Program-made: the position numbers and the translations under genes
Source of the DNA: a virus
Length of the DNA: 64,000 nt
Virus record (IMG/VR): IMGVR_UViG_3300028840_002150
Coordinates: 38,421-102,420 of that record
Direction: 5' to 3' (one strand)
The notes under the pieces: model-generated
Databases searched by the model: none
What the model saw: only the letters and a program-made list of their open reading frames with translations
Told to the model about the DNA's origin: nothing
Part shown: piece by piece, positions 7,207 through 29,611 of the stretch
Numbering within the stretch: position 1 is the first letter of the stretch
Layout: each line of letters starts with the position of its first letter

Positions 7207-7222
7207 GCCCGCCGGTGACATC

Positions 7223-8534: not shown

Positions 8535-8548
8535 CTTTTCGGATTTCC

Positions 8549-8587
8549 GGTATTCGGCCAATATCGGCGCGGACCGGGCGAATAACT
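8549..8587 (+). promoter_or_regulatory. early operator/promoter cassette
   Basis: GGTATT-CGGCC-AATATC-N12-GCGAATAAC. Confidence 0.8.
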
Positions 8588-8628
8588 GATTGATGAACGA
8601 CACAACACCAACCACGAAAGGGGCCGAC

Positions 8629-8880
8629 ATGCACGAGCTGAAACGAAAGTTCGAGGGCAAGGCGTTGGCGGATTACCCGGAGACCACCCGGATCCGCCTC
8701 AACCTGATTGGAGGCGGGGCCGAATACGTGGAAGTCCCTACCGCCGAAGTTTTTCAGCCGGGCGACTGGTTGGCCCGCCGCTTCGCCGGCATCAAGTTTT
8801 CCCTCTGCGAGCGGGCCATGCGTAAGCGGAACGTCCCGCTTTACAACGTCAAGACCTTCGCCGTCGAAAGCCCCGAATGA
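8629..8880 (+). CDS. hypothetical protein
   Basis: Follows leader and RBS. Confidence 0.55.
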   Translation: MHELKRKFEGKALADYPETTRIRLNLIGGGAEYVEVPTAEVFQPGDWLARRFAGIKFSLCERAMRKRNVPLYNVKTFAVESPE

Positions 8881-9095
8881 TGGACGACCTAGCCGCCAAA
8901 ATCAACGCCCACCTGGAAGCCGGCGGAGTCGTCCAGGTGACCACCTATCTCCGTAGTACGGTCTACAACGCCAAGCATACGGGGTGGTTCTACGAGCGGG
9001 GCGGGGAGTTGTTCGTCCGGCGCGGGCGCTCGGCGGATTGCCTGTCCTGCGCCGGGCGTCCCGCTGTCGGGATTCGGTTTGGCCGGTATTCCTGA
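8877..9095 (+). CDS. hypothetical protein
   Basis: ATGA coupling. Confidence 0.55.
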   Translation: MMDDLAAKINAHLEAGGVVQVTTYLRSTVYNAKHTGWFYERGGELFVRRGRSADCLSCAGRPAVGIRFGRYS

Positions 9096-9131
9096 ATTTC
9101 GGCCAATATCGGCCTATCCCCGGCGAATACC
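9094..9131 (+). promoter_or_regulatory. early operator/promoter cassette
   Basis: GAATTT-CGGCC-AATATC-N12-GCGAATACC. Confidence 0.75.
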
Positions 9132-9177
9132 ATAATGGAGGCGACACGATATGACCACCAACCACGGAGAACGCGAA

Positions 9178-9336
9178 ATGGCCCGAAAACCCCGCGAGGA
9201 GCACACCCGCAACATCCTGAACTCCGACCCCCACGAATTGGACGAATACCTGGAGTACCTGGAAACGGAGGGCTACACGGTCCGACGGATCAGGGAAAGC
9301 CGAGACGGACGATACTGGGAAGTCACCTTCAGCTAA
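9178..9336 (+). CDS. hypothetical protein
   Basis: CCAACCACGGAG leader and RBS. Confidence 0.55.
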   Translation: MARKPREEHTRNILNSDPHELDEYLEYLETEGYTVRRIRESRDGRYWEVTFS

Positions 9337-9363
9337 CCCTACAGCAAAATAGAAAGCACACCC

Positions 9364-9627
9364 ATGAAGTACGGGCCCGCAAACTCGAACTGGAAAGGCG
9401 GCACTCGTTCCAATTGGATGGGGGCCGGTGAACGCGCTTTTTGGCAGGCCGCCCAGGCAAAGAACCTGCTGAAGCGGATATTGACCACGCATTGCGACGC
9501 GAGGGGCGAGCTGCCCGGATTCACGCGGGACGAGCAGCAATGGGCGATGCGGGTATGCCGCGAGCGTCCGGATTGGGCCGAGGACACACTGAAAAGCCTC
9601 GGGTTTCCGCCAAAATCTGCGGAGTAA
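9364..9627 (+). CDS. hypothetical protein (GPANSNWKGG, NUMOD-like N-terminus)
   Basis: Motif typical of HNH-associated DNA-binding repeats. Confidence 0.45.
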   Translation: MKYGPANSNWKGGTRSNWMGAGERAFWQAAQAKNLLKRILTTHCDARGELPGFTRDEQQWAMRVCRERPDWAEDTLKSLGFPPKSAE

Positions 9628-9642
9628 ATCGGAGACAAAGCC

Positions 9643-9852
9643 ATGCCAAACCAAACCGAACCCCTCACGAAAGCATCCCACTCCATCGGCTTCGCCATGG
9701 ACGATCTACGGGCCGCGCTAAATCGGTCCGGCCCGGTGGAAGCCCTGGTCATTGCGGAGCTGATCCGCAAAGCGGCCCGGCTACGGAATGACATCTCCGC
9801 CCTACTCGGGGCGATGGAGATGGAGTCGGAGCGGACATCCACGGTGCCCTGA
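9643..9852 (+). CDS. hypothetical protein
   Basis: GGAG RBS. Confidence 0.55.
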   Translation: MPNQTEPLTKASHSIGFAMDDLRAALNRSGPVEALVIAELIRKAARLRNDISALLGAMEMESERTSTVP

Positions 9853-9875
9853 TTTAGAACCGCCTGCCATTTGCC

Positions 9876-9915
9876 GATATTTCGCCAATATTCCGCGCTT
9901 CCCGGCGAATACCTA
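9876..9915 (+). promoter_or_regulatory. early operator/promoter cassette
   Basis: GATATT-TCGCC-AATATT-N12-GCGAATACCTA. Confidence 0.8.
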
Positions 9916-9956
9916 AGTAGACAACACAACACTACTTACCACCGGAGGCGCGAATC

Positions 9957-10370
9957 ATGCAGGCTATCACCCACCACGACCCGCTCAACATCACCACCCA
10001 CAACGGAACGGTGACCGTCCACAACCCGAAGACCGGCAACCACCGCACGTTCCGTATCCGCACCCAGCCGGACAATGCGGAGTTTGCGCCGGGCGAGCGG
10101 GTGGTTTCCTTGCTCACCGGCCCGGACAATGAGGGCGACTACCGCGGCTTCGGCTTCGTGATGGCCGACGGCCGCATCCGGCTCTGGCGCCGCTGCCAAA
10201 CCGCCACCTTCGAAGCCTACGCCCGCATCTTAATGAACCCCGACCACTACGCGATTCACCACGGGCTGGAGTTCATGTCCGAGGGCCGATGCCGCCGCTG
10301 CAACCGGACGCTCACCACCCCGGAGTCGGTGGCATCCGGAATCGGACCCGTATGTGCCGGCCGCGAGTAG
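9957..10370 (+). CDS. DUF6011-like Zn-finger domain protein
   Basis: C-terminal GRCRRCNRTLTTPESVASGIGPVC. Confidence 0.75.
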   Translation: MQAITHHDPLNITTHNGTVTVHNPKTGNHRTFRIRTQPDNAEFAPGERVVSLLTGPDNEGDYRGFGFVMADGRIRLWRRCQTATFEAYARILMNPDHYAIHHGLEFMSEGRCRRCNRTLTTPESVASGIGPVCAGRE

Positions 10371-10407
10371 TGCCCGATAATTTCGGCAAATCCGCCATTT
10401 CGGCTAT

Positions 10408-10495
10408 CCCTACCCGCTTGACAGCCGGTAGGGTTTTTGCTTACCCTGATATTGCGTAAACATTAGGCAGCCGGTCCTAGTATTCGGGCAATATC
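10408..10495 (+). promoter_or_regulatory. terminator overlapping a sigma70-like promoter, plus two operator-like palindromes
   Basis: CCCTACC/GGTAGGG plus TTTTT; TTGACA(10418)-N18-TACCCT; operator-like sites at 10448 and 10479. Confidence 0.5.
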
Positions 10496-10503
10496 GGGAA
10501 TCC

Positions 10504-11859
10504 ATGGCAAGAGCAAAGAACCAAGAGGCCGCCAAGCAGGCGGAATCCGAACCCGTCAAGTCCGCCCCCTCCGGGCCGCGCATCCGCAACAAGGAAATCC
10601 GCACCGTTAGGGTAGCGGATATTCTGGACCACCCGAAAAACTGGAGGCGGCACCCAGCCGAACAACAAGCTGCCCTGGACGGCGTGGTTTCCGAAATCGG
10701 CTGGATTGGCTACCCCGATGCTTTCGAGCACCCGTCTTATCCGGGCAAAATCATGCTCGTTGACGGCCACCTTCGCAAAGCCCACCTGATCGGCAAGTAC
10801 GGGGAAGACGCCGAAATCCAAGTCAACGTCACCGATCTGGATATCGAGGAGGCGGATAAGGCGCTAGTCACACGGGACCCGTTGGCGGCCATGGCGGAAA
10901 CGGACGCGGCCATTCTGCGGGATGTATTGGCCGGGATCGAAGCGGAAAACGCCGATCTTGCGGCCATGCTCGAAGCCTTAGACGAGGACGCACAGGCAAT
11001 CCTGGAAGACGCGGCAGAATCGGAACCGCCCGAAATCACCGAAGATGAAGTCCCGGAACCGCCAGCGGACCCCATTACAAGACCGGGAGACCTGTGGATA
11101 CTCGGGGAGCATCGGTTGCTATGCGGGGACTCGACTAAGGCGGAGGATGTGAAAAAATTGATGGAAGAAATGCGTGCGTATCTTTTGGCGACAGATCCGC
11201 CGTATGGGGTCAATTTTGCGGGAGCCAAATACAACCCCCGCGCAAAGCATTGGGATGGAATCCAAAACGACACGAAGCAAGGCGAAGACCTTAAGTCGTT
11301 CGTTGTCGCAACATTGAATGCCTGGGTGCCGTATATCGATGAAGCAGCCGGGTTCTATTTTTGGACAGCAGCGATGGAAGAAGGCGCCGCCGCCGCCGCC
11401 GCCATTCGAGAAATCGGCTTACACATCCAGTCACAAATTATCTGGAACAAAAATACACTCGTCTTGGGACAGGCCGACTATCAATGGAAGCACGAAAATT
11501 GCTGGTACGCATTCTGGAAGGGGAAACACCATAGATGGTTCGGGGGACGAGATAAAACGACTGTCTGGGATGTTGCGAAGGTGGCAAATTCTGCGTATGA
11601 ACACCCGATGCAAAAACCAGTTGAATTGTACGCTATTCCGATCCGTCACCACACCCAAAACGGCGAGGTGATCGCCGAGCCATTCGCGGGAAGTGGTTCT
11701 CAGTTTATCGCCGCCGAACAGTTGGGCCGCAAATGCTACGGCATGGAAATCGGCCCGCAATACTGCGACGTAATTCTCAACCGCTTCCGCAAGTTACGAC
11801 CGAACAAGCCGATCACCCGTCAAGACGGCAAGACATGGGACGAGTTATCCGCCGCATAG
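10504..11859 (+). CDS. ParB-like N-terminal domain plus N6-adenine/N4-cytosine DNA methyltransferase
   Basis: HPKNWRRHP and DGHLR (ParB); GEHRLLCGDST, TDPPYG, HPMQKPVEL, EPFAGSGS. Confidence 0.9.
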   Translation: MARAKNQEAAKQAESEPVKSAPSGPRIRNKEIRTVRVADILDHPKNWRRHPAEQQAALDGVVSEIGWIGYPDAFEHPSYPGKIMLVDGHLRKAHLIGKYGEDAEIQVNVTDLDIEEADKALVTRDPLAAMAETDAAILRDVLAGIEAENADLAAMLEALDEDAQAILEDAAESEPPEITEDEVPEPPADPITRPGDLWILGEHRLLCGDSTKAEDVKKLMEEMRAYLLATDPPYGVNFAGAKYNPRAKHWDGIQNDTKQGEDLKSFVVATLNAWVPYIDEAAGFYFWTAAMEEGAAAAAAIREIGLHIQSQIIWNKNTLVLGQADYQWKHENCWYAFWKGKHHRWFGGRDKTTVWDVAKVANSAYEHPMQKPVELYAIPIRHHTQNGEVIAEPFAGSGSQFIAAEQLGRKCYGMEIGPQYCDVILNRFRKLRPNKPITRQDGKTWDELSAA

Positions 11860-12312: not shown

Positions 12313-14412
12313 GTGGCGAAGCTGGGAACCGAAGTGGCAATGGCGGCAAGCGGGGCCACGCTGGAAGAGGCCGGGCTGGCGTGTATCGGATGGGACTGCC
12401 CGCGGGACCTGAAGTTCTTTGCCGAAGTGTTTTGGGGCGTAGTGGAGCCGGGGAGGGACCTGATATGGGGGAAACATCTATCGGCCATAGCCGAACACCT
12501 GGAAGCCGTCCGGCGCCGGCAAATCAAGCGGCTACTGATTACCGTCCCGCCGCGTACCACCAAATCCTCCCTGGTATCGGTGCTCTGGCCGGCGCAAGTC
12601 TGGACAACCGATCCGAGCCACCAGTTCCTTTGCGTATCCCACTCGGACGGGCTGGCTACGCGGGACACTCGGAAGATGCGGTCTATCGTGGAGTCGGACC
12701 TGTACCAATCCTATTGGGGCCGGGCTACCCGGCTAAGCCACGACCAAAACCAGAAGACCCGCTTCGAGAACGTGAGCCGCGGCCAGCGGGTGTCCTTCGG
12801 CATCTCGGCATCTTTCACCGGCGAGGGCGGAGACACGATCATCCTGGACGATTTGCTTGACCGGGACCGGGCCATGAGCGAGGCCCACCGCATCGCGGCT
12901 ATCGAGGCGCTGGACGAGAAGATCAGCACCCGGCTCAACGACCCGGCAACCGGGGCTATCGTGATGATCGCTCAACGCTTACACGAATCCGACCCCCCCG
13001 GACATGCCATCAAGCAAGGCGGATGGGAACACCTAAACCTGCCGATGCGGTTTGAGCCGGACCACCCGTTCCTATCCACCACATCGCTTCATTTCGTGGA
13101 CTGGCGGACCCAAGACGGGGAGTTACTGTGGCCGAAGCGGTTTCCCGAAAACGTGGTCAAGCAAATGGAGCGAACCCTTGGGCCCTACGGATCGGCCGGG
13201 CAGTTGCAACAGCGGCCGGCGCCCAGGGGTGGCGGGATGTTCAAGCGGGACTGGTTCCAGCCGGTGGCCCGCCAAAATGCCCCGCCTATCTCGGATTACG
13301 ACGAGCTGTGCCGATTCTGGGATTTGGGCGGCACGGAGGACGGGGGCGACCCGACAGCCGGGGTGCTGATCGGCCGCCGCGGGGCCAAGTATTTCATCCA
13401 CGGCTGCCAGCAGGGGCAATGGTCCGCCAATGACCGGGACACGCGGATCGTACAGACCGCCTCCCACGACAACGCCCTATTCGGGCCGAAGGTAATGACC
13501 GGCGTGGAACAGGAACCCGGCGCCGCCGGCAAGCAGGTGGCGGAAAACCTGGTCCACCGGCTAACTGGATCCGGCTACCGGGCGTTTAAGGAGCCGGCGC
13601 AAGGCGACAAGCCCACCCGCGCGGAGTCATTCCAGGCCGCTTGTGAGCGCGGTGATGTCTACGTGATCGAGGGGGACTGGCTGGAGCCGTTCCTGGCCGA
13701 GCTGGAGCTATTCCCCTACGGGCAGCATGACGACCGCGTGGATGCGGTTTCCGGGGCGTTCCGCTATGTGAGCCGAGACCACGGGCACCCACTGGACCCG
13801 CACGCCGTAGTGGCCGCGGCCGGCATGACCTACGAAGAGGCCCGCAAGTTCGATACGTTCCGGGCATCCGTTGGCGCGGTCTATCGAGATTACCGAACCC
13901 AGGAAATCGGCTTTGCTTTGGTCGGGGTCAATCCGGATGTACGGGAGTACACCTTGCTGGATTCGGCCCAATACGACCGGGCCGACGAAGCCGCGGCCAA
14001 GGACATCAGCGCCAGGGCCAAGGCACGCCGGGTACTCGGGATCGGCTATCCGGAAGCTGACGGGCATTCATTCGCCTCGTTGCTGAAGAAGGCGTGGGCA
14101 GAATCGGAAGCCCGACCGGATCCGAAATTCGCCGGACCGCTGACGGTCTACCCCAAGGAGCTATCCCCAAAGGTCCGAACCATTATTGGCGGTCACGTCG
14201 TCACCGCCTTCCGGGATGGCAAGCTGCAACTGTTCGAGGACGACGAGCTACTTCGCCAAATCATCCGACTACCGATCGCCCGCAAGCCAGCGGGGTTCTC
14301 GTTGGAGGACCCCGAGGAGCACCAGACCAACCTGGCCCGCGCCTACGCGCTCGCCTTGGCCATGTTCTGGGCGCCGTACAACATGGCCCAATACTTGCGG
14401 GAGAAGAATTAG
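12313..14412 (+). CDS. terL: terminase large subunit with C-terminal extension
   Basis: RLLITVPPRTTKS Walker A, IILDD Walker B, QRLHESD, QLQQRP, FWDLG, FPYGQHDDRVDA nuclease motifs. Confidence 0.93.
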   Translation: MAKLGTEVAMAASGATLEEAGLACIGWDCPRDLKFFAEVFWGVVEPGRDLIWGKHLSAIAEHLEAVRRRQIKRLLITVPPRTTKSSLVSVLWPAQVWTTDPSHQFLCVSHSDGLATRDTRKMRSIVESDLYQSYWGRATRLSHDQNQKTRFENVSRGQRVSFGISASFTGEGGDTIILDDLLDRDRAMSEAHRIAAIEALDEKISTRLNDPATGAIVMIAQRLHESDPPGHAIKQGGWEHLNLPMRFEPDHPFLSTTSLHFVDWRTQDGELLWPKRFPENVVKQMERTLGPYGSAGQLQQRPAPRGGGMFKRDWFQPVARQNAPPISDYDELCRFWDLGGTEDGGDPTAGVLIGRRGAKYFIHGCQQGQWSANDRDTRIVQTASHDNALFGPKVMTGVEQEPGAAGKQVAENLVHRLTGSGYRAFKEPAQGDKPTRAESFQAACERGDVYVIEGDWLEPFLAELELFPYGQHDDRVDAVSGAFRYVSRDHGHPLDPHAVVAAAGMTYEEARKFDTFRASVGAVYRDYRTQEIGFALVGVNPDVREYTLLDSAQYDRADEAAAKDISARAKARRVLGIGYPEADGHSFASLLKKAWAESEARPDPKFAGPLTVYPKELSPKVRTIIGGHVVTAFRDGKLQLFEDDELLRQIIRLPIARKPAGFSLEDPEEHQTNLARAYALALAMFWAPYNMAQYLREKN

Positions 14413-15992: not shown

Positions 15993-16502
15993 ATGGAGCG
16001 AAAGCGTGGGTACGGGCAAGCGGAACCGACGGTCGGCAAGCCGGTGGAGCTGCCGCAGCCAGCCGGGCAACGATGCGAGCCGCAGTTGGATCCGGGCGAG
16101 TGGGGCATTCTATTACAGCGGCGCAGAACGGACTCGGAGCAATGGCGGGAATGCCGGTGGTTTAGCCTGGAGGAAATCGCGGATGCCCTGTGGGAACAAG
16201 CGGCGCGGGCGTTTCAGGTGTTGGAAAGCGACTACGTACAGCCGATTAAGCCGATCCCCTGGACCGACTGCCTGTGCTCCGAAGTCGTCTGCCTGGATCC
16301 GGACGCAGAGTATCCGCCGGTAGCTGACACGCTGGAACGCGCGGAGGGCGAAAGCCAGTTCGATTACGAGGACCGGCTAGTGCGGCATTTTCACGGTGAG
16401 GATGCCTGTCTTAACCGAACAGATAACGGGGCACCGTGGGCCATGCCATGCACGAAGAAGCGGGGCCATGAGGGACCGTGTAAGTTCGAGGGTTACGCAT
16501 GA
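15993..16502 (+). CDS. hypothetical protein
   Basis: ATG directly after an operator palindrome (15976-15992); C-terminal C..C..H..C. Confidence 0.5.
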   Translation: MERKRGYGQAEPTVGKPVELPQPAGQRCEPQLDPGEWGILLQRRRTDSEQWRECRWFSLEEIADALWEQAARAFQVLESDYVQPIKPIPWTDCLCSEVVCLDPDAEYPPVADTLERAEGESQFDYEDRLVRHFHGEDACLNRTDNGAPWAMPCTKKRGHEGPCKFEGYA

Positions 16503-18361
16503 ACGACTGGACCAGCAAAGACGAAGAAGTCCGAATCCTGTTCGGCGACTGCCGGGAACGGATGAGGGAACTGCCGGACAATTCGGTGGATTCGGTGGTC
16601 TGCGACCCGCCCTACCTCCTTAGCTTCATGGGGCGCGAATGGGATAGCGTGGGCGGAAAGAAGGGGATGCGGGATGAAACACGGGCACGACAGAGGTCGG
16701 AGTACGCAGACAGCGCCCCTGGAGCACCGCGATATGCGGCTTCGGCGGTTCCTGCTGCGTTGAAGCCGGGTGAAGCCACCGCCATGCAGGCTTGGCACCA
16801 CTCCTGGGCCGTGGAAGCCTACCGCGTCCTGAAACCCGGTGGCCACCTCCTCGCGTTCGGCGGCACCAGAACTGTTCATCGCCTCGCCTGCGCCCTGGAA
16901 GATGCCGGGTTCGAGATCCGGGACAGTATCCTGGAAATGCTCGCATCGGATCAAGCGTTTCGGGATCTGTGGGACACGTTAGCGCCGGAACAGCAAGAGG
17001 CGATGGGCAAGGCATTGGAATCGGTGGGGCTGACGGGGTTGCTGTCTTGGAACCACTCACAAGGATTTCCGAAAGGCTTGAACGTGTCCAAGAAGATCGA
17101 CCGGATTCTTGGGGCGGAACGGGAAGTGGTCGCCACACGCGAAGAGCACAACATCTGCCGACCGGAAGGTGGCGGTGACGAGCGGTTCAATACGTCGTCC
17201 GGCGCCCGTGAAACAAGGACCGTCGAGACGACCGCCCCCGCCACTCCCGAGGCCAAGAAATGGGACGGCTTTAACGTGGCCATGAAGCCGAGCTTTGAGC
17301 CAGTGGTATGCTGCCGTAAACCCTTATCCGAGTCCAACGTCGCCAGCAATGTGCTGAAGTGGGGGACGGGAGCACTGAATATCGGGGCATGTAGAGTGGG
17401 AACGGAGATCGTTCCGCAACAAATCGGCGGCATGGAGCGATTCAACCAGAAGGCGCATGAACACGGCTATCGCCCCAACGCATACCAAAAAGACAATGGG
17501 CGAAACGGCGAAGCATCCGCAGAAAGCCGATACGACGAAAAAGGCAGCACCAACTTTGCCGCCATGCCGGGACCGCGGAACGGCTCGCCGCAAGGTCGCT
17601 GGCCCGCCAACACCGTCTTACTTCACCATCCCGAGTGTGTGTGCAGGGGGGTGAAGAAGGTCAAGGGCGGAACTGGAGGAAAGGCGTCGGGTGACAATGC
17701 GTTCGGCCACGATTCTGGGTGGAATAAACACAACAATCGGTCAACGAAAATCGTTCGGCAAAATGACGAAAACGGACAAGAGCAGGTCGAAGACTGGGAC
17801 TGCCACCCGGAATGCCCTGCCTTTTTACTAAACAAGCAATCTGGAAAAAGCAAAAGTAGCGGAGGACAAGCGTCGCTAGGAGCATTTCGAGGCGGCAAAA
17901 TCTACGGCGAAGGCAAGGACGTTCGAGAACAGAGGGATCCAGGTTACGGGGACTCTGGTGGCGCTTCCCGCTTCCTATACCAAGCCAAAGCGTCGCGCCG
18001 CGACCGCTGGTTTTACTGCCGCGACTGCCAAGCCGCCTTCTGCGAGACCGAACGCCAGGACCACCAGCACGGCCACGACAAGGGTAAGCCGGACTGGAAG
18101 CATATCGTTGCGCACCCAACGGTCAAACCGCTGTCCCTGATGCGGTATTTGGCAAGGCTGGTAACGCCGCCGGGAGGTGTCGTCCTGGACCCGTTCCTTG
18201 GCACGGGCACCACGGCGGTCGCCTGCATCGAGGAAGGTTTTCGGTGCATCGGCTGCGAGCAAGATCCCGAGTATGCCGTGATTGCGCGGACCAGGGTGGA
18301 AGCGAAGGCCGCGGAAGAACAAGACCGGTTTCCTTTGTTCAGGGAGCAACCCCATGCCTGA
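16499..18361 (+). CDS. site-specific DNA methyltransferase (N6/N4) with insertions
   Basis: GDC...DSVVCDPPY, RVLKPGGHL, GRWPAN, HPTVKPLSLMRYL, LDPFLGTGTT. Confidence 0.9.
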   Translation: MNDWTSKDEEVRILFGDCRERMRELPDNSVDSVVCDPPYLLSFMGREWDSVGGKKGMRDETRARQRSEYADSAPGAPRYAASAVPAALKPGEATAMQAWHHSWAVEAYRVLKPGGHLLAFGGTRTVHRLACALEDAGFEIRDSILEMLASDQAFRDLWDTLAPEQQEAMGKALESVGLTGLLSWNHSQGFPKGLNVSKKIDRILGAEREVVATREEHNICRPEGGGDERFNTSSGARETRTVETTAPATPEAKKWDGFNVAMKPSFEPVVCCRKPLSESNVASNVLKWGTGALNIGACRVGTEIVPQQIGGMERFNQKAHEHGYRPNAYQKDNGRNGEASAESRYDEKGSTNFAAMPGPRNGSPQGRWPANTVLLHHPECVCRGVKKVKGGTGGKASGDNAFGHDSGWNKHNNRSTKIVRQNDENGQEQVEDWDCHPECPAFLLNKQSGKSKSSGGQASLGAFRGGKIYGEGKDVREQRDPGYGDSGGASRFLYQAKASRRDRWFYCRDCQAAFCETERQDHQHGHDKGKPDWKHIVAHPTVKPLSLMRYLARLVTPPGGVVLDPFLGTGTTAVACIEEGFRCIGCEQDPEYAVIARTRVEAKAAEEQDRFPLFREQPHA

Positions 18362-19684: not shown

Positions 19685-20125
19685 ATGCCGCACGCGCACT
19701 TTCGGAACGGTTCGGACAGGTGGGCCACCCCGGTGTGGCTGTTTGAGGCACTGGACCGGGAATTCGGCTTCACCCTGGACGTGTGCGCGGAACCGGAGAC
19801 GGCCAAATGCAAGCGGTTCTTCGGCCCGGAGGAAAACGGGCTACTGAAGAACTGGGGGTCCGAAATATGCTGGATGAATCCGCCCTACTCCGCTACCGCC
19901 AAGTGGATGGCCAAGGCCCACAATGCGGCCAACGAGGGGGCCACCGTTGTTTGCCTGGTGCCGAGCAAGACCGATGCCATCTGGTTCCACCGGTATGCCT
20001 TGAAGCACGAGTGCCGGTTTGTCAAGGGTCGGCTGCGGTTCGGCGGGCCGGATGCCGACAAGGCCCCATTCGCCTCGCTGGTGGTGGTCATGCGGCCGGA
20101 TTCTTTCCGGTTGTGCTCTTTGTAG
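19685..20125 (+). CDS. phage N6-adenine DNA methyltransferase (Dam-like)
   Basis: DRWATP..LF..LD.EFGFTLDVCA, WMNPPY, VVCLVP, RFVKGRLRF. Confidence 0.9.
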   Translation: MPHAHFRNGSDRWATPVWLFEALDREFGFTLDVCAEPETAKCKRFFGPEENGLLKNWGSEICWMNPPYSATAKWMAKAHNAANEGATVVCLVPSKTDAIWFHRYALKHECRFVKGRLRFGGPDADKAPFASLVVVMRPDSFRLCSL

Positions 20126-20138: not shown

Positions 20139-20315
20139 ATGAGCACCGGCACCCGCGCCGATCCGATCAAACGCCAGCGGGCCGCCCGCCTATTACGCGA
20201 GGGCCGCCCCCACCGCGAAATCGCGCGAGTCACCGGCCTGGCCCGAGAAACCGTCCGCAAACTCGCCTGTGAACAGGCCGCCCCTTCCCGCCAGAATCAG
20301 GCCCGCAAATCATGA
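20139..20315 (+). CDS. small HTH protein
   Basis: LLREGRPHREIARVTGLARETVRK. Confidence 0.7.
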   Translation: MSTGTRADPIKRQRAARLLREGRPHREIARVTGLARETVRKLACEQAAPSRQNQARKS

Positions 20316-23300
20316 CCCTCACCCAGGAACAGACCGAACGGCTGGACTCCTTGTCGCAACTCCGCCAGACGTTCGAGGCCGAGAAGGAAGCCCGCGCGGC
20401 GCGGGCCATGGAATCCTATCTCCGCACCCAGGAACACCTAGCCAAGGCCAAGCAGTACACCGCGGAATCGTTGGTGTTTACCGGGGCGCAGACCTACGTG
20501 AACCCGAACGACTACCTTCCCAACATGTTCCGGCGAGACCGGCAGTTGATTTACGGCGGGCACATCGCGGGAATCGGGGACCGCTACCGGGGCCGAGACC
20601 TGCCGTTCATCTACACGTTGCAGGACGCATCCCAGGCCCGCGGAATGGCCCGGCTTGTCACCAAGACCACCTGCCCCGGCGTGGGCGTAGAGCAAAACCT
20701 GAAGGGCTACATCTGCAAGGACGGGTTCACCTTCCAGGCCGGCGACAAAAAGAACTCCGAAGCTCCCGCCGCTTTGGTCGCCGCGGTCCAGGACGTGATT
20801 GACGACATGCTGGACGCCAACGACTTCACGGGCGATTTGGACAAGGAAATTCTCTGGCGGACCATCCGGGACGGCGAGTGCTACAACGTGCTCTACCCGC
20901 AGAAAGACGGCATCACGATCATTCGCCAACTGGAGCCGGAGCAAAATCCCGAGCCGCCGAATAACCCGTTTACCCCCGAGGAGCTGTTCACCAGATTCGG
21001 CATCGAGACGGCTGAGGACTGCGACTGGTCCCTCGGAGTACACACGCCGGCATGGGACGTGCAGCGGCCCTACGGCTACTATGTTCAGTGGGACCCGACC
21101 GATGCGGGCGACTACATCCCCGCCGAGCATTGCGTGCATATCAAGTGGGGCGTGGAGCGGAATGTCAAGCGCGGATTGACCGCATTTTACCCGAGTTGGC
21201 AATGGCTTCTCCAGCAGCAAGATTTGCTGGTAAACACCGGCGAAGGTGCCAAGCGGTTGGCCGCCATCGCCTACATTGTCCAGTACGCCAACGCTACGGC
21301 ATCCGAATATCAGGCGATGCGGGACGCCAGCCTCGGAACGTACGATGTGACCGTGGACCTGCCGGGCGGCGGATCGAAGACCTACACCCGGACCTTGGAC
21401 AATCCGGGAGACGTGCTGAACGTCCCGGAGGGGCAGGAGTTCGTTTCCGGCCCGACCGGGCACGAGCGGGGCAATGCGTTCCTGCAAATCGCACAGGGCA
21501 TCCTCCGGCAAGTGGCGGTCCAGTTTTGCATGTCGGAGGGGATGATTTCCGGCGACGACAGCAACAATAACTTCGCCTCGTCCGTGGTGGCTGGCAGCCG
21601 GTTCCACACGTTCTGCACTATGATGCAGGGGTGGCTCGGAGGCAAGTTCACGAAGATGGCATGGCGGGCGGTCCAGTTCGCCTATGATGCCGGGCGGTTC
21701 CGCCAATGGGGATTCGAGCCGGGCCGCCGCACGTTCCGCCAATTGCGGCGGATAATCGAAATCAACGTCACCGGGCCGGACGTGGCCATCGAGACGGCTG
21801 CCGACAAGCAGGCCATCGCCACCTACCGCCAAATCCTCAACCAGTCCGGGGTGCTGTCCAAAAAGACCTGGATGCAGCACGAAGACCTGGACGCGGAGCG
21901 GGAGCAGAAGCAAATCGAGGAAGAGGGCGGACCGGCGGGAGAACAGCAAGGCGGAGCACCCGGCGCCCCCGGTGCTCCCCCGGCGCCGGGCGGCGGAGAT
22001 GGCGGCGAGCCCGAGCCGCCCAGCCCGCCCGCAGGCCCCCCGCCGGCCAAAGCCGCCCAATTGGACGCCGAGCGACCCGCTACGGAATCCTCCGCCGACA
22101 GGCCCGAGGATTGCGGCTGCGCTGCGGAAGACACCGCCGCCGTGCCCACGCAAACGCCCCGCCGCCCCACGGTAGCCGTGGACCTGGACGGCACGCTCAC
22201 CCTGCCGGATGGCACGCCGAAGCCGGATGCGCTGGCCGCAATGCAATCCTTGGCCAACTGCGGCTTCTGCCTGATTATCAACACCGTTCGCGGAAACCGG
22301 CAGGAAGTGGCCACCTGGCTAAGCCGCTACGGCATCCCCTACGACTACATCAACGAGAACCCATTCCAACCGCCCGATACGTCCGGCAAGATCATGGCCG
22401 ACGTGTACCTGGATGACCGAGCCGTGAGCGGGGAGGGGCCGCTTTCGCTGGTTGTGCCCCAGGTAATCGCGCAGGCCACACAATCGGCATCGGAGCCGCA
22501 TCAAGGCGGACCGCCGCCGCTAAACACGCAGCCCGCTTTCGGACAACCCATTGCGGAATCTTCGCGCATTTCCCCCGATATTGTGGATCTATCAGCGAAT
22601 ACCCTAATGGCGGAATCCGGTATGGTCCAAGTTTTGGAAGCAGACGGTTCGGCCGTTTGGGAAGGGCAGGCCGCCGATCTGGGGGAAACCCTGGATGTGG
22701 CCCTGGAACTGTACGGGCCGGCAGCGGTCGAGGGGTTGCAGGTTTCCCGGTGTTTCGACGGGAAGGGAGGCGTGGCAGAAGCCGCCGTCCCTTTTGCGAT
22801 GGAGAAGGAGGGGGATAAGTGGATTACCCTCCGCTCTGGCGCGCGGGTGCAAATCGACGGCGAGGGAACGATTACCGCGGGATTTGGCAAGGGTGAAAAC
22901 ATCCGGGCCATGGGCAGGCGGGAAGCCAAGGACAATAAGCCGAAACGGGAACGCGTTGCAACCCCGGAGGAAAAAGTTGCCGGCCTGTTTTCGGAAAGCG
23001 AGAAGAAGCTCCCGAAACAAGCGCAGCAACCGCTAAAAACCCGCGATGAAGTCTACGGAAATGCCACCAAGGTCAAGGACCGTTATGACAAGGTTTTGAA
23101 CCAGGGGCAGGGCGTCGATTCCGCTATCGGGGCCAAAGTGGTGCAAGCACAAGACGCAATGTCGGCCATGGACGAGCCGGGTCCGGTTGTTATCCTGGCA
23201 CCGCTGAAAGGCGAGGCAAGAGCCGCCGAAAAGGTGGAGACGAAGTACGGCGGAGATTGGTCGCAACTGCAGGACGTGGTGAGGGGAACCGTTGCGGTCG

Positions 23301-23671
23301 ATACCGTGGACGATTTGCCAAAAGTGACGGAGGCGCTGCGGGAGAAAATGGAATCGCAGGGGTTCAAGCTGGCCGCCGCACCGGACGACAAAATGAGCAA
23401 CCCAACCCCGGCGGGCTACCGGGATGTAGCGCTCATGATGGTTTCCCCGGAAGGCATGGTCTGCGAGCTGCAGGTAAACGTGAAGTCGATGATAAAGGCG
23501 AAGCAGGGTCCGGGTCACAAGATGTACGAAGAGGCCCGAGGGATCGAGGCAAAGGCCAAGCTGGAAGGCCGCAACATGACCCCCGCCGAGCAAAAGCAAA
23601 TGCAGGACCTAAACGGAAAAATGACCAAGTTGTACGCGGACGCCTGGAAGCAGGCGGTGGGGGGTAAGTGA
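20312..23671 (+). CDS. portal protein fused to a HAD-family domain and a C-terminal RelA/SpoT-like nucleotidyltransferase
   Basis: Portal: RDGEC, IPAEHCVHIK..RGL, SGDDSNNNFAS; HAD: AVDLDGTL...KIMADVYLDDRA; RelA/SpoT: LK..RA.EK, QDVVRG, GYRDV, ELQV. Confidence 0.8.
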   Translation: MTLTQEQTERLDSLSQLRQTFEAEKEARAARAMESYLRTQEHLAKAKQYTAESLVFTGAQTYVNPNDYLPNMFRRDRQLIYGGHIAGIGDRYRGRDLPFIYTLQDASQARGMARLVTKTTCPGVGVEQNLKGYICKDGFTFQAGDKKNSEAPAALVAAVQDVIDDMLDANDFTGDLDKEILWRTIRDGECYNVLYPQKDGITIIRQLEPEQNPEPPNNPFTPEELFTRFGIETAEDCDWSLGVHTPAWDVQRPYGYYVQWDPTDAGDYIPAEHCVHIKWGVERNVKRGLTAFYPSWQWLLQQQDLLVNTGEGAKRLAAIAYIVQYANATASEYQAMRDASLGTYDVTVDLPGGGSKTYTRTLDNPGDVLNVPEGQEFVSGPTGHERGNAFLQIAQGILRQVAVQFCMSEGMISGDDSNNNFASSVVAGSRFHTFCTMMQGWLGGKFTKMAWRAVQFAYDAGRFRQWGFEPGRRTFRQLRRIIEINVTGPDVAIETAADKQAIATYRQILNQSGVLSKKTWMQHEDLDAEREQKQIEEEGGPAGEQQGGAPGAPGAPPAPGGGDGGEPEPPSPPAGPPPAKAAQLDAERPATESSADRPEDCGCAAEDTAAVPTQTPRRPTVAVDLDGTLTLPDGTPKPDALAAMQSLANCGFCLIINTVRGNRQEVATWLSRYGIPYDYINENPFQPPDTSGKIMADVYLDDRAVSGEGPLSLVVPQVIAQATQSASEPHQGGPPPLNTQPAFGQPIAESSRISPDIVDLSANTLMAESGMVQVLEADGSAVWEGQAADLGETLDVALELYGPAAVEGLQVSRCFDGKGGVAEAAVPFAMEKEGDKWITLRSGARVQIDGEGTITAGFGKGENIRAMGRREAKDNKPKRERVATPEEKVAGLFSESEKKLPKQAQQPLKTRDEVYGNATKVKDRYDKVLNQGQGVDSAIGAKVVQAQDAMSAMDEPGPVVILAPLKGEARAAEKVETKYGGDWSQLQDVVRGTVAVDTVDDLPKVTEALREKMESQGFKLAAAPDDKMSNPTPAGYRDVALMMVSPEGMVCELQVNVKSMIKAKQGPGHKMYEEARGIEAKAKLEGRNMTPAEQKQMQDLNGKMTKLYADAWKQAVGGK

Positions 23672-23865
23672 TGGCAGACACAAAGTATGTTGACTCCGAA
23701 GGGGCGCTGTTGCGCTGGTTAGACCACGCAATGCCGTTTCGTGAAGTGTACCGCAAGGGCGGCAAGTGGGTGCCCTACGGCGGCGAGTATAGCGATTGGC
23801 TTTACGGTAAGCCGCTGTCGGATTCGGAAGCCCGCGAACGAATGAAGCAGATCGACGAGGACTGA
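23671..23865 (+). CDS. small protein, putative immunity or antitoxin
   Basis: TGATG coupling directly after the RelA/SpoT domain; function inferred from position only. Confidence 0.45.
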   Translation: MADTKYVDSEGALLRWLDHAMPFREVYRKGGKWVPYGGEYSDWLYGKPLSDSEARERMKQIDED

Positions 23866-23867: not shown

Positions 23868-26306
23868 ATGCCGGTTGACATTCCGCTCTTGAAAGCCCTC
23901 CAGCGTCGCGCATCTCTGAGGCTGTTGGAAACGTGGTCCGGGAACCGCGGCGGGGATACCGTAGTCGCCGAAGAGGAACGCTGGATTACCACCGACAACG
24001 GGAAGCGGATGAAGATTGACGACTCCGGCAAGATTACCGCCGGTCCTGGGGCGGGGATGAACATCTCCGATTTTGGCAAGCACGGCCCGAGCGGCAAAAA
24101 GTCTCAAGCGGCAAGTGGTGGCGACAAGCCGCTGGACGTGGATAAGTCCGGCGATGAACTGGCCGCGGACCGCAAAGCCAAGCTGATGCAAGCGTTTCGC
24201 AAAAACGCCGGCGACGATGGGGGCGAGGCCGCGCCTGCCGAGCGGGCAAGCCAGGCGGCTACGCGGGGCAATGACGAAGGGTTGAAATCCGGAGAGCAAC
24301 TAGCCGCAGACCGCAAGGCGAAACTTCAGCAGGCGTTCAAAGCGCAGCAGGACATCGCCCGAGCATCGGCCAACAAGCAAAGCAAGATTGACGGCGCCCG
24401 CCGTTCGTCGCCCGGCGATACGGAGCCGGTGGTTCGCGATACGTACAAGGCCGCGGAAACCCTGGAAAAGTTGGCTCCCGGCACTACCACCAAACAGGCC
24501 GCGCAAATGTCCGGGGCCCCGGATGAAGCGGTGGTGGATCTAAGCCAAGCCAAAGGCGGCGCGGTCCGGTACCATGCGATGGATGACCGGTTCGAGGCAA
24601 CCGGCACCATCCGCCGCGCGGAAGATGGCAAACTCGAGGTCCGCTACGATCGGCTAAGTATCCTGCCCGATGCCCGCGGGACCGGGTTCGGCGCCGAGCT
24701 GTTGAACAATCAGGTACACGCTGCGGAAAAAAGCGGGGTGTCTCGGATCCGCGTCGAGGCCGTGGGCAACTATATGGAAAACGATCTACGGAACGGCTAC
24801 TACGCGTTTCCCCGCATGGGGTTCGACGGCGACTTGCCGGGCGATTGGAAAGGCCAGATGGAAGCCAACGGCGCGATGGGGGACGCTTTGCCGGCGGACC
24901 TGCAAAACGCCACCAAGGTTTCGGACCTGATGAAAACGCCGCAAGGGCGGGAGGCGTGGAAAAAGTACGGCTTCCCGATGGAGCTAACCTTGGACACCAC
25001 TCCAGGTTCCCAGGGCCGCAAGGTGTTTGACGCCTACTACCAAAGCGGCGACCGCAAGGGGACGGATCTGAAGGTGGAATCCGCGCCGCCACGAGAAATG
25101 CCGCTCATGGAAGAGGGGCAGGAAGTACCGGAACCGGGGGACGATGAGCGGGAGGTGGACATCGATCTCGGCATTGACGACGACGAAGACATCTTCGCCG
25201 AAATCTGGGATACGCTCGAAGACGACGCGGAGCCTGACGCAGAACCCGGCGAGGGGACCGTCACCGAGGCCGCCGACAAGTACGCCGATGTGGACCTGAC
25301 GCCGACTAAGGGGATGCAGGCAGCGGCCAGAAATGGCGTGGAGCGGCATGAAAACGGCGAGACGGGCGACGGGCTGAAACCGGAGACCGTATCCCGAGCT
25401 AACCGGATTGCACGCGGCGAGCGGCTTACCCCCGAGCACGTCCGCGAAATGTCCGGCTGGTTCGCGCGGCACGGCAAGGACAAGCAGGAACCCGGCACCC
25501 CTTGGTATGCCGCGTGGCAGCTTTGGGGCGGCAACGCGGGGGAATCCTGGAGCAAGGACAAGTCCGCGGAATTGGACCGCAAAGACGAAGAATCCAAGGC
25601 CGCCGAATCCGCCATGACACCGGCGGATATTCCGGCCGCTACGGACCCGGACTGGCGGCACGTTCAGGAAAACGCATTCGACAACTTGACCCCCGAGGCC
25701 CGCGAAGGCGACCCCGCCCAACCGACGGACCGCGCCCAACTTGAGCGGGAACTCCGCAACGCCCGAGTCAAGACCAACCCCAACCCCTCGCCACGGGCGA
25801 AGCGGACCGGCAAGTACCGCAAGGGCAAGGTGGAAATCCACGGGCTGACGGTCGCCATCGAGAATCCGAAACATTCGACCCGCTCCGGCAAGGCCAAGGA
25901 CGGCACCGAATGGGAGCGGTACTATCATTTCGACTACGGAGAAATCCGGGACGCGGTGGGCGAAGATGGGGATTTCCTGGACGCCTACATCGGGCCGGAC
26001 CCAGCCTCGGAGCTGGTGGTTATCATCGACCAGATCGACCAGGACACCGGCGAATTCGACGAGCACAAAGTCATGCTCGGGTGGCACGACCAGGCAGAGG
26101 CGGTAAAAGCCTACCTGCAGCACTACCCGGCAGACTGGCGGCCCGGCCACGTCACCGCGCTGACGGTAGACCAATTCAAAGCGTGGATTTCCGGCACACA
26201 ATGGGGCACCCAGGCCGCTAAGGTTCGGGACTCCATCTTTGCCGCGCTGGAATCCGCCGAGACCGTCGCGGACGTGCTACGGGAATTCAGCAGCACCTAC
26301 CCCTGA
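23868..26306 (+). CDS. polyvalent head-associated protein: GNAT, conserved DLTP/WQLWGG domain, inorganic pyrophosphatase-like domain
   Basis: ARGTGFG...GYYAFPRMGF (GNAT); MSGWFARH..WQLWGG; IENPK..RSG..DYGEI..GEDGD.LD.YIG..DQ..FDEHKVMLG (InPase). Confidence 0.78.
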   Translation: MPVDIPLLKALQRRASLRLLETWSGNRGGDTVVAEEERWITTDNGKRMKIDDSGKITAGPGAGMNISDFGKHGPSGKKSQAASGGDKPLDVDKSGDELAADRKAKLMQAFRKNAGDDGGEAAPAERASQAATRGNDEGLKSGEQLAADRKAKLQQAFKAQQDIARASANKQSKIDGARRSSPGDTEPVVRDTYKAAETLEKLAPGTTTKQAAQMSGAPDEAVVDLSQAKGGAVRYHAMDDRFEATGTIRRAEDGKLEVRYDRLSILPDARGTGFGAELLNNQVHAAEKSGVSRIRVEAVGNYMENDLRNGYYAFPRMGFDGDLPGDWKGQMEANGAMGDALPADLQNATKVSDLMKTPQGREAWKKYGFPMELTLDTTPGSQGRKVFDAYYQSGDRKGTDLKVESAPPREMPLMEEGQEVPEPGDDEREVDIDLGIDDDEDIFAEIWDTLEDDAEPDAEPGEGTVTEAADKYADVDLTPTKGMQAAARNGVERHENGETGDGLKPETVSRANRIARGERLTPEHVREMSGWFARHGKDKQEPGTPWYAAWQLWGGNAGESWSKDKSAELDRKDEESKAAESAMTPADIPAATDPDWRHVQENAFDNLTPEAREGDPAQPTDRAQLERELRNARVKTNPNPSPRAKRTGKYRKGKVEIHGLTVAIENPKHSTRSGKAKDGTEWERYYHFDYGEIRDAVGEDGDFLDAYIGPDPASELVVIIDQIDQDTGEFDEHKVMLGWHDQAEAVKAYLQHYPADWRPGHVTALTVDQFKAWISGTQWGTQAAKVRDSIFAALESAETVADVLREFSSTYP

Positions 26307-28864: not shown

Positions 28865-29611
28865 ATGGGCGGTGTTTTGCCGAGCGAGGTAATTGCGGAG
28901 TTGGAATCCCTCGGGCCGGTTTGGCAATCTTCCGACTGCCGGATCGTGCTTTGTAACTGCGATTGTCTGGAGGGGCTAAAGGTGTTGCCGGAGGGGTGTG
29001 TGGATGCGGTGGTGACGGATCCCGAATACGGCATAGGATGGAATCCACGTGTGAACCACAAAGACGCAAAGTGGAGAGACACCAATAGATTCGACCCATT
29101 GCCATGGCTTGGGATCGGTACTTATCACTTGTTTTGGGGCGGAAACTATTTTGCCGATAGGTTGCCGGTATCTAACGGGTGGCTTGCGTGGGTAAAGCGG
29201 CCGATCCATTGCGACTTTTCGAATGACCATAGATCATACAGTACGGTCGAACTGGCGTGGTCCGATTTTGGTAAGGCCCGTTTTATAAAGCATGTTTGGG
29301 ATGGCGGCATGCGAGAGGGCGATTCGTCAAACCGTGAGTTTTTGCATCCTGCACAGAAACCCGTCGAGGTTATGATTGCAAGCATGCCTCCGATTGATGC
29401 CGCGGTCGTATGCGACCCTGAAGTTGGCTCCGGCACAACTGCCATCGCCTGCATCCGCACAGACCGTTCCTGCATCGGCATGGAAATAGACCGGGGCTAC
29501 TGGGAGACCGCCGTATCCCGATGTAAGCGGGAGTACGAGCGGACCGCTCTTTTGGATTCCTCTGAGTCCATCCAGGTGCTCCGCCAACAGGCCCTCCCCC
29601 TTTCTTCCTGA
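28865..29611 (+). CDS. DNA methyltransferase-like protein with variant motifs
   Basis: DAVVTDPEYG (for DPPY), WGGNYF, HPAQKPV, DPEVGSGTT. Confidence 0.8.
   Translation: MGGVLPSEVIAELESLGPVWQSSDCRIVLCNCDCLEGLKVLPEGCVDAVVTDPEYGIGWNPRVNHKDAKWRDTNRFDPLPWLGIGTYHLFWGGNYFADRLPVSNGWLAWVKRPIHCDFSNDHRSYSTVELAWSDFGKARFIKHVWDGGMREGDSSNREFLHPAQKPVEVMIASMPPIDAAVVCDPEVGSGTTAIACIRTDRSCIGMEIDRGYWETAVSRCKREYERTALLDSSESIQVLRQQALPLSS

Follow-up and report, generated by a model that had tools for sequence, protein, structure and literature searches.

A phage portal protein that carries a HAD phosphatase and a Tas1-like synthetase domain, with an overlapping Tis1-like partner gene

A fused portal gene in the head module

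The window, meaning the whole 64,000-nt stretch of DNA analysed, belongs to the complete 102-kb genome, with terminal repeats, of an uncultured phage (IMG/VR record IMGVR_UViG_3300028840_002150). An uninterrupted ORF at 20312-23671 (+), starting with ATG and ending with TGA, encodes a protein of 1119 aa in which a lambda-type portal is followed by a Pro/Gly linker, a capless HAD phosphatase, a glycine-rich 'WIT' module and a RelA/SpoT-fold synthetase. A first-pass annotation, made from the sequence alone, had read portal, linker, HAD and RelA/SpoT in this order within one ORF of this length, and the ORF, the motifs and the profiles show that order to be correct. The features of the region are as follows.

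12313..14412, + strand: large terminase (PHROG 38, E 1.1e-83), which opens the head/packaging module
20312..21916, + strand: portal domain of the lambda-family type, aa 1-535 (PHROG 21 match)
21917..22144, + strand: low-complexity linker rich in Pro, Gly and Ala, aa 536-611 (read from the translation)
22145..22447, + strand: capless HAD-type phosphatase, aa 612-712 (motifs and phrog_1238)
22576..22620, + strand: putative weak copy, inside the ORF, of the promoter-like cassette repeated in this phage (PWM), preceding the in-frame ATGs at 22607 and 22622
22820..22921, + strand: glycine-rich WIT module, aa 837-870, ahead of the synthetase
22964..23668, + strand: Tas1/Apk-like pyrophosphokinase of the RelA-SpoT fold, aa 885-1119 (sequence and model)
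23671..23865, + strand: 64-aa Tis1/IapK-like partner gene, translationally coupled (fold match and predicted complex)
23868..26306, + strand: 812-aa polyvalent protein with WIT, a weak GNAT and InPase (profile matches)

Residues 175-594 match PHROG 21 'portal protein' with E 2e-21. Pfam PF05136 (Phage_portal_2) scored 23-25 bits, under its 32.9 cut-off, and TIGR01539 gave E 0.001. No second portal was found in the 102-kb genome with PF04860, PF05133 and PF05136 or in phmmer searches with four portal sequences, and the fused protein, encoded in the head module downstream of the terminase, is the sole portal candidate. The first-pass annotation had also remarked that the MuF protein of this phage carries no toxin. 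This is unsupported, because MuF (PF04233) had no match anywhere in the genome at E<=1.

Two other proteins have portal parts that share 44-46% identity with this portal. In one of these (P0005) InPase comes after the same portal and HAD; this protein carries a similar linker and is colinear with the 1119-aa protein at 46% identity across portal, linker and HAD. The other (P0006) has the same portal followed by an ADP-ribosyltransferase. Relatives of the synthetase included seven further portal fusions, on Phage_portal_3 and Portal_Mu, and an unfused locus (L005) in which portal, kinase, Tis1-like ORF and a giant ORF are each a gene of their own. Effector fusions to the portal therefore recur, as the idea that the cargo rides on the portal, put forward in the first-pass annotation, would have it.

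The HAD domain contains all four motifs, namely D621-L-D623-G-T (DxD), T657, K693 and D700-D701, and these are conserved in P0005. DLDGT (aa 621-625, nt 22172) and YLDD (aa 698-701, nt 22403), both named earlier, were located in the ORF. The domain matches phrog_1238, a PHROG without a curated cut-off, with E 4.7e-21. No profile match exceeded a curated cut-off, the values being 32 bits (E 1.1e-7) against 165 for NCBIfam NF046079 (BT0820-family HAD phosphatase) and 17 bits against 20.9 for Pfam Hydrolase_3. The match to PDB 2obb had E 0.022.

The WIT module and aa 35-72 of the next protein share 47% identity (E 2e-10), and the module is also present in P0006 and in a stand-alone synthetase protein (P0018). 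This next protein, of 812 aa, matches PF18823 InPase (E 1.1e-43) and GNAT families (E 0.003-0.03). With HAD and kinase both on the portal, the 1119-aa protein is itself polyvalent, in that at least two effector-type domains lie on one polypeptide in a head-module context. Domains found in the relatives include InPase, ART-PolyVal, Zeta toxin and topoisomerase IB.

The synthetase domain resembles Tas1

The synthetase alone found Tas1 (PDB 6ox6_A) with E 4.9e-6 using phmmer. A profile of the 42-member family scored 66 bits (E 3.7e-17) against the same chain, with the next solved protein at 23 bits and no sequence match to CapRel. The AlphaFold (AF2) model had a pLDDT of 96.1, and its top Foldseek match was again Tas1 6ox6_A (4.4e-9), the outcome of a check that the first-pass annotation had proposed. 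Foldseek returned 62 PDB matches at E<=0.001, and all 28 that were listed share the nucleotidyltransferase fold of the RelA/SpoT homologues (RSH), namely Tas1, the small alarmone synthetases (SAS) SAS1/2, RelP and an exported SAS, and Rel, RelA and CapRel.

The motifs noted earlier were found where they had been placed, QDVVRG at aa 987-992, GYRD at 1035-1038 and ELQV at 1052-1055, and supply the invariant D988, R991, Y1036, D1038 and E1052. Together with K966, K974 and H1069, all of these family-invariant residues are kept. Across the 42 relatives there is little or no variation at K966, K974, D988, R991, Y1036, E1052, Q1054, H1069 and Y1072, which align with Tas1 and make up the synthetase motifs (basic residues, D-x-x-R, G-Y, E-x-Q and H-x-x-Y). 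The query has no match to Pfam RelA_SpoT (PF04607), while 28 of the 42 family members match it at E<=0.01 (P0014 with 35 bits against a 27-bit cut-off), so the link to this Pfam family is transitive. By sequence, Tas1/Apk is the nearest characterised relative, and the enzyme most likely makes (p)ppApp.

The product could instead be (p)ppGpp, or the enzyme could pyrophosphorylate tRNA 3' ends as FaRel2, CapRel and PhRel do. SAS, Rel and CapRel are also among the fold matches, the motifs do not reveal the substrate (motif-swap conversions of Apk2 failed; PMC12226406) and some exported relatives make both alarmones (PMC12691689). Nevertheless, we consider a product other than (p)ppApp unlikely. 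Tas1 is far ahead by sequence (66 versus 23 bits) and CapRel has no sequence match. In addition, the partner is Tis1-like and not a pseudo-zinc-finger antitoxin of the kind that goes with tRNA-targeting enzymes; Tis1-type inhibitors accompany makers of (pp)pApp, not tRNA pyrophosphokinases (PMC11782079). The effector described in the first-pass annotation as 'alarmone or tRNA-modifying' can thus be narrowed to a most likely maker of (p)ppApp, given the proximity to Tas1 and the Tis1-type partner.

The 64-aa partner and its predicted complex with the kinase

The ATG of the partner gene at 23671 shares one base (A) with the TGA of the portal ORF (23669-23671), which is the overlap of a 64-aa gene with the stop codon reported earlier. 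An alternative start is GTG at 23668. The stop codon is at 23863-23865 and the next gene begins at 23868. A model of the protein (pLDDT 80) had Tis1 (6ox6_B) as its best Foldseek match, at rank 1 of 350,542 chains (prob 0.87, E 0.41), and structural comparison (VIA) with Tis1 gave Z 5.1, 1.6 Z units over the next row, with an rmsd of 3.5 A over 60 of the 64 residues. On an absolute scale, both the Foldseek E value and the Z score make this a weak likeness, and a profile of the module did not find Tis1 by sequence.

The predicted complex of kinase and partner had an ipSAE of 0.87, while the best of three controls reached 0.02. Among solved complexes 58 of 80 attained this mark, and among mismatched pairs 2 of 110. 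At least 81% of contacts agreed between runs and the partner pLDDT was at least 86. As Tas1-Tis1 is a solved complex, this pass may reflect likeness and not be independent evidence. The partner is predicted to cover the acceptor-nucleotide site of the kinase, with D988, Y1036 (in the GYRD loop), Y1072 and R1076 in the interface. Tis1 and IapK act through occlusion of the acceptor site (PMC10083569, PMC11782079, PMC12226406), and the modelled interface fits this mode of action. The best structural match and the predicted site both favour the earlier suggestion that the small gene confers immunity.

In ~59 of 157 relatives (18 with a type 1 and ~41 with a type 2 module) the same Tis1-like module, of about 55 aa, follows the synthetase in cis on one chain, and in two other phages it is a separate overlapping gene. 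The cis fusion in relatives is newly described here. A cis-fused 'immunity' module poorly fits a simple producer-cell antidote, and its occurrence in ~59 of the 157 relatives means that the module may be a gate or regulator instead of plain immunity for the producing cell. We tentatively raise the possibility, which we hold to be rather improbable, that the module is a built-in gate, with the (p)ppApp synthetase caged in the head and opened only on delivery. The cap would be tethered in cis in those relatives and split off in the phage described here, and the cage would be opened by unfolding in the tail channel, by cleavage or by a host cue. If true, the principle of CapRel, a fused toxin released by a trigger, would have an equivalent inside virions, with the dose set at twelve by the portal ring.

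A slightly less probable reading, and in our view a doubtful one, makes the small protein no inhibitor at all, but an integral lid or specificity subunit that has been split off here and leaves the enzyme active while bound. The module does lie directly behind the kinase in the 18 and ~41 relatives, often within long polyvalent proteins whose every domain should function, and its predicted contact with the acceptor loop could shape the substrate pocket. However, the best structural match is an immunity protein. Inhibition from that site is the mode of action of Tis1, of IapK and of the Tis1-like domain in AT2faRel (PMC11782079, PMC12226406), and self-inhibited fused toxSAS proteins are known (CapRel SJ46, PMC9712102).

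Proposed mechanism and delivery

The C-terminal end of the portal points into the capsid in known portal structures, and the portal ring has twelve subunits. We consider it probable overall that the locus encodes a portal with enzyme cargo, a Tas1-like (p)ppApp kinase and a Tis1-like inhibitor, packaged in the head and acting on the next host. The end of the portal that faces the inside of the capsid is lengthened, through a flexible Pro/Gly linker, by the HAD phosphatase, WIT and the Tas1/Apk-type pyrophosphokinase, which would turn ATP into (p)ppApp. In the producing cell, the 64-aa protein would sit on the acceptor-nucleotide site and keep the kinase off while portals and heads are made. 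With one phosphatase and one kinase on every portal subunit, a head could be loaded with up to twelve of each, and a MuF carrier would not be needed. On the next infection the target of the cargo would be the nucleotide pool of the host, once the cargo had been freed from both the portal ring and the cap. The analysis shows which domains are present, that the catalytic residues are kept, that the partner has a Tis1-like fold and that such fusions recur; we infer the binding, inhibition, packaging, release, product and host effect. Counting against this explanation, a Tas1-like enzyme would, if unrestrained, drain ATP that the phage itself needs; searches of the genome for an Aph1-type or other alarmone hydrolase found none.

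It is also conceivable, though we judge it improbable, that the packaged cargo never leaves the portal and that the fusion serves the producing cell or lysogen and not early host take-over. In one form of this idea, toxin and immunity gene would be carried as a pair by a prophage and bring a benefit through competition or addiction, a role that has been debated for MuF toxins. The prohead protease families S78, S49, S77 and ClpP were not found in the genome, leaving no evident route for release from the portal ring. A tyrosine integrase is encoded, so the phage may be temperate, and for Apk2 delivery has been left open and a link to temperate phages noted (PMC10083569, PMC12226406). On the other hand, extensions by InPase, ADP-ribosyltransferase and kinase recur on three portal families, for which head cargo is the better fit, and the fusion genes are located in the late head operon.

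Less likely again, an internal promoter and start codon (ATG 22607 or 22622) could give rise to most of the kinase half, which would then be made unattached to the portal and along with the products of the small gene and of the gene after it, leaving the read-through portal fusion as a minor or secondary form. By a position weight matrix (PWM) built from 10 early copies of a promoter-like element repeated in this phage, a possible copy at 22576-22620, on the coding strand, ranks twelfth in the window with 20.3 bits, which beats all 20 shuffles (maximum 15.1), and P0018 is a stand-alone WIT-plus-kinase protein. This score is, however, far under those of the true copies (54-64 bits) and of a held-out copy at 57686 (42.6 bits), and neither ATG has a clear ribosome-binding site ahead of it.

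It is very improbable, even for a genome assembled from a metagenome, that the 1119-aa reading frame arose through a misassembly or frame error that joined a normal portal to separate downstream genes (an assembly artefact being an outcome that the first-pass annotation had said would refute it), since this genome is complete with terminal repeats, the identical 1119-aa protein was found on 3 contigs, P0005 is colinear over portal, linker and HAD, and the synthetase relatives occupy three different portal families, two of them other than that of this phage.

Significance

Whether head-borne toxins such as MuF-Apk2 are packaged and injected is still open in published work (PMC10083569). The portal fusion bears on this question. 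As every virion must contain the portal, in a fixed number of copies, assembly itself would bring the cargo into the particle, at a dose of up to twelve. About a million ATP make up roughly the whole pool of a bacterial cell. With a toxSAS turnover of ~100,000 per minute (PMC12691689), a dozen molecules could turn over about a million ATP each minute. Cargo of this potency would have to be tightly controlled, and the Tis1-like caps fused in cis in many relatives give direct access to how this is done. That such fusions are found on three portal families points to the portal as a general substitute for MuF in carrying effectors.

Comparison with known systems

The closest counterpart in phages is Apk2-IapK(BcTis1)-Aph1, found among MuF polymorphic toxins of temperate phages of Bacteroides caccae, S. 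pneumoniae and M. haemolytica (PMC10083569, PMC12226406). In both systems a phage head protein ends in a Tas1-like adenosine 3'-pyrophosphokinase domain and is directly followed by a small Tis1-like blocker of the acceptor site (the blocking being predicted for the portal fusion). They differ in the carrier, MuF there and a portal here in a genome with no detectable MuF, in the HAD phosphatase and WIT between carrier and toxin, and in the absence of an Aph1 hydrolase from the portal-fusion phage. The delivery domain of Apk1 and Apk2 (PAAR and MuF, respectively; PMC10083569) is absent from the 1119-aa protein, which has a portal at its N-terminus.

Tas1 (Apk1)-Tis1, an effector of the Pseudomonas aeruginosa T6SS with its immunity protein (PDB 6OX6), provides the best match of both the kinase (chain A) and the partner (chain B). 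The catalytic motifs are the same, but Tas1 is delivered by a PAAR domain via the T6SS, identity is 13-23% and the domain of the phage family is ~50 residues longer at the N-terminus.

The polyvalent proteins of Iyer et al. 2017 likewise combine several effector enzymes per polypeptide in the phage head module, and the passages of that survey on such fusions list portals fused to InPase (BcepF1.124), 2H and PBECR, and RelA/SpoT fused to MuF or within polyvalent proteins (PMC5512222). In those passages a portal-RelA/SpoT fusion, a HAD so placed and a Tis1-like companion, fused or split, are not mentioned.

In CapRel SJ46 and its kind the neutralising domain is on the same chain or in a separate gene, as with the caps described here, but there the cap is a pseudo-zinc-finger at the ATP donor site of a tRNA-targeting enzyme that acts in host defence (PMC9712102, PMC11782079), whereas the phage cap is Tis1-like, predicted to lie on the acceptor side, and phage-encoded. 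FaRel/AT2faRel is a (pp)pApp-making toxSAS that is neutralised at the acceptor site by a Tis1-like N-terminal domain, but as a chromosomal tricistronic toxin-antitoxin module without a virion carrier (PMC11782079). In the portal fusion, a toxin-antidote module of a type already known from phages is placed on a carrier that is new for it.

Organization of the locus

The virus is uncultured and its genome is complete (102,420 bp, with direct terminal repeats); the window covers the right-hand 64 kb. An uninterrupted ORF on the plus strand (20312-23671) encodes a protein of 1119 residues. Translation placed the motifs quoted in the first-pass annotation for a HAD domain (DLDGT, residues 621-625; YLDD, 698-701) and for a RelA/SpoT-type synthetase (QDVVRG, 987-992; GYRD, 1035-1038; ELQV, 1052-1055) where that annotation had put them. 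The small gene said to overlap the stop codon of this ORF does so, its ATG at 23671 sharing one base with the TGA, and an alternative GTG start is found at 23668. The small gene extends to 23865, and two bases separate it from a third gene, which begins at 23868.

Features of the locus, with window coordinates unless residues are given
319-9886 (ten copies) and 57686, with weaker copies at 22576 and 26315, plus strand: promoter-like cassette made up of CAATATC, a 12-nt spacer and GCGAATAAC-CTAxT
10504-11859, 16499-18361, 19685-20125 and 28865-29611: four DNA methyltransferase genes, interspersed among the packaging and head genes
12313-14412: large terminase gene, upstream of the portal ORF
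Residues 1-535 of the long protein: portal domain (PHROG 21 'portal protein', E 2e-21)
Residues 536-611: Pro/Gly/Ala-rich linker
Residues 612-712: HAD domain with all four HAD motifs (phrog_1238, a phage HAD family, E 4.7e-21)
Residues 837-870 (22820-22921): glycine-rich WIT module
Residues 885-1119: synthetase domain
23868-26306: next gene; second polyvalent product, with WIT at its start and matches to GNAT (weak) and InPase (strong)

One of the four methyltransferases has a ParB-like N-terminus. A tRNA-Arg(CCG) was predicted by ARAGORN at 58578-58673; at 96 nt, it is much longer than tRNAs usually are. Outside the window, the genome encodes a tyrosine integrase (G000:C1:18950-19483, minus strand, locus L016; PF00589, E 1e-12, in a 442-aa frame), and the phage may therefore be temperate. 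The first-pass annotation had described a MuF protein without a toxin, but MuF (PF04233) was not detected anywhere in the phage's own 102-kb genome. The same genome gave no match to prohead proteases of four families (PF04586, PF01343, PF03420, PF00574), to the alarmone hydrolase PF13328 or to the serine recombinase PF00239, and contained no further copy of the synthetase or of a Tis1-like module. A blastn comparison of the locus with GenBank phages found no match.

The portal fusion is natural and recurrent

The identical long protein was found on three contigs. Among its relatives, P0005 is colinear with it through the portal, linker and HAD (46% identity to residue 731) and continues into an InPase domain, while P0006 has portal and WIT region in common with it and carries an ADP-ribosyltransferase as cargo. 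Fusion of the synthetase to portals recurs: of 44 further family members in which the synthetase is preceded by more than 300 residues, seven are portal fusions (three to Phage_portal_3 and four to Portal_Mu) and only one is a MuF fusion. An unfused counterpart was also found at L005 (L005:3585-11857), where separate ORFs encode a portal (3585-5375) and a Tas1-like synthetase (5842-6681). The latter is overlapped by a Tis1-like ORF (6666-6878), followed by an ORF encoding 1660 aa (6875-11857). Taken together, the three contigs, the colinear P0005, the related P0006, the seven portal fusions and the unfused L005 make it very unlikely that the fusion is an assembly artefact, and this explanation was rejected.

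When the neighbours of the synthetase in ten related viral loci were compared with PHROG, only L005 (portal) and L007 (methyltransferase) were informative. A scan of IMG/VR with the portal alignment found no match, and genome and metagenome scans each returned one short portal fragment (L014 and L015). L014 (CAZFLF010001491.1) is 45% identical to this portal; the 1.6-kb contig that carries it was assigned to the bin of an uncultured Pirellulaceae, a weak hint of a planctomycete host.

Portal, linker, HAD and WIT regions

The Pfam lambda-family portal model also matched residues 1-535, under its cut-off. As the portal families PF04860 and PF05133 had no match in the genome and the large terminase lies upstream, the long ORF is the only portal candidate of this phage. 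The HAD domain weakly matched the capless BT0820-type HAD phosphatases (NF046079, E 1e-7; PDB 2obb, E 0.02). Substrates of capless HADs are usually macromolecular.

The protein that follows opens with a second copy of the WIT module (47% identity, E 2e-10), ahead of its GNAT and InPase regions; the module also heads the stand-alone synthetase P0018 and is present in P0006. A database-wide search with the WIT region (residues 772-875) returned only the query. The duplication in the neighbouring polyvalent protein and the position at the head of P0018 suggest that WIT serves generally to tag head cargo.

Within the long ORF there is a weak copy of the promoter-like cassette (22576-22620), ahead of two in-frame ATGs (22607 and 22622). 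With a position weight matrix this copy scored 20.3 bits against 15.1 for the best of 20 shuffles; the copies used to train the matrix scored 54-64 bits, and the one held out, at 57686, scored 42.6. The cargo half may be expressed independently.

The synthetase domain

Although Pfam did not recognize the synthetase domain of the query directly, its RelA_SpoT model matched 28 of the 42 members of an alignment of the family. Against PDB sequences, phmmer matched the domain to Tas1, the (p)ppApp-making type VI toxin (6ox6_A, E 4.9e-6), and the 42-member profile ranked Tas1 (E 3.7e-17) ahead of the exported alarmone synthetase 8vx3 (E 5e-4) and RelA (E 7e-3). The catalytic residues are intact. Invariant across the alignment are K966, K974, D988, R991, G1017, Y1036, D1038, G1048, E1052 and H1069. 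An exhaustive HMMER search (E<=0.001) recovered 2617 cluster representatives from proteins of 150 to 4400 residues; a scan of IMG/VR with the single domain gave no match.

The AlphaFold model of the domain (pLDDT 96) also matched Tas1 best in Foldseek (4.4e-9), followed by small alarmone synthetases, Rel, RelA and CapRel. In a library of viral structures, the best matches were large proteins of uncultured phages labelled RelA/SpoT, ART-PolyVal-like or Tas1. By sequence and predicted fold, the domain is an intact pyrophosphokinase of the Tas1/Apk type.

A Tis1-like partner, separate or fused in cis

The 64-aa product of the small gene had no match in Pfam, PHROG or NCBIfam. Its AlphaFold model (pLDDT 80) has a C-terminal helix preceded by five or six short strands, and the best match among 350,542 PDB chains was 6ox6_B, the immunity protein Tis1 crystallized with Tas1 (Foldseek probability 0.87, E 0.41). 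VIA-align superposed the two over 60 residues at an rmsd of 3.5 A (Z 5.1); the match ranked next had Z 3.5. These figures are modest for a fold this small, and the match derives its weight from the fact that toxin and partner each best match one of two chains of a single entry. Sequence did not lead to Tis1, as a profile of the module returned only noise from the PDB sequences.

Local searches found a homologous module of about 55 residues (Y-x-[DE]-x-[DE]-G-A ... W-x-P-Y-x-G) 15-40 residues C-terminal of the synthetase in the same chain in 18 relatives. A second form (YFEY-G-PA ... FPV ... YDL-KF) lies behind the synthetase in approximately 41 further relatives and in eight of 12 viral loci. 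The iterated search with the second form also recovers P0121, a member of the first, profile-profile alignment relates the two (probability 89%, E 2e-6), and their joint alignment is coherent. A Tis1-like cap is fused in cis in approximately 38% of the synthetase family; in 78 relatives the synthetase is the last domain of its protein. Among loci of this latter kind with DNA sequence to hand, a separate, overlapping small gene comes next in the window and in L005 (first form) and in L009 (second form); no small cap gene was found behind the synthetase in L007.

Five of the cis-capped relatives (P0136, P0078, P0162, P0137 and P0139) have in common a conserved N-terminal region of repeated short beta-rich segments (G-D-x-V-x-F ... 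G-R-D-G-x-T) before the synthetase, perhaps a further module for carriage or targeting.

Predicted complex and likely product

The predicted complex of the synthetase with the 64-aa protein scored 0.87 (ipSAE), and the best of three controls 0.02. It passed a mark attained by 58 of 80 solved complexes and two of 110 mismatched pairs. Three runs concurred in at least 81% of contacts, with a partner pLDDT of at least 86. The prediction supports binding; since the similar Tas1-Tis1 complex is a solved one, the pass may reflect likeness to that pair and need not be independent evidence.

The predicted interface involves D988, the TPAGY stretch including Y1036, Y1072 and R1076, which form the acceptor side of the active site. 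In makers of (pp)pApp, the acceptor site is occluded by Tis1, IapK or the Tis1-like domain of AT2faRel, while in tRNA-targeting relatives the donor site is blocked by pseudo-zinc-finger domains (PMC11782079, PMC10083569, PMC12226406). The predicted interface agrees with the published mode of inhibition by Tis1 and IapK. The first-pass annotation had allowed for either an alarmone-making or a tRNA-modifying effector; the type of partner favours the former, with (p)ppApp as the probable product, and a tRNA target is disfavoured.

Proposed mechanism and comparison with known systems

Portal rings have twelve subunits, and their C-terminal crown points into the capsid, so that up to twelve copies of a C-terminal extension should be enclosed in the head. 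In late infection the partner would cap the synthetase. The cargo would be freed from the portal, perhaps by release within the low-complexity linkers, and act in the host infected next. There, production of (p)ppApp would deplete ATP and halt purine synthesis, the effect described for Tas1.

The nearest known system is Apk2-IapK-Aph1, which is found on MuF proteins of temperate phages, and the nearest solved pair is Tas1-Tis1. Fusion of portals to InPase, 2H or PBECR domains, and of RelA/SpoT domains to MuF, had been described by Iyer et al. 2017 (PMC5512222). Whereas Apk2 is borne on MuF, the carrier of the Apk-type toxin here is the portal, with a HAD domain interposed; MuF and Aph1 were not detected. 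In the literature considered, no counterpart was found for an Apk-type toxin borne on a portal, for the interposed HAD domain, for the absence of MuF and Aph1 or for the Tis1-like cap in cis.
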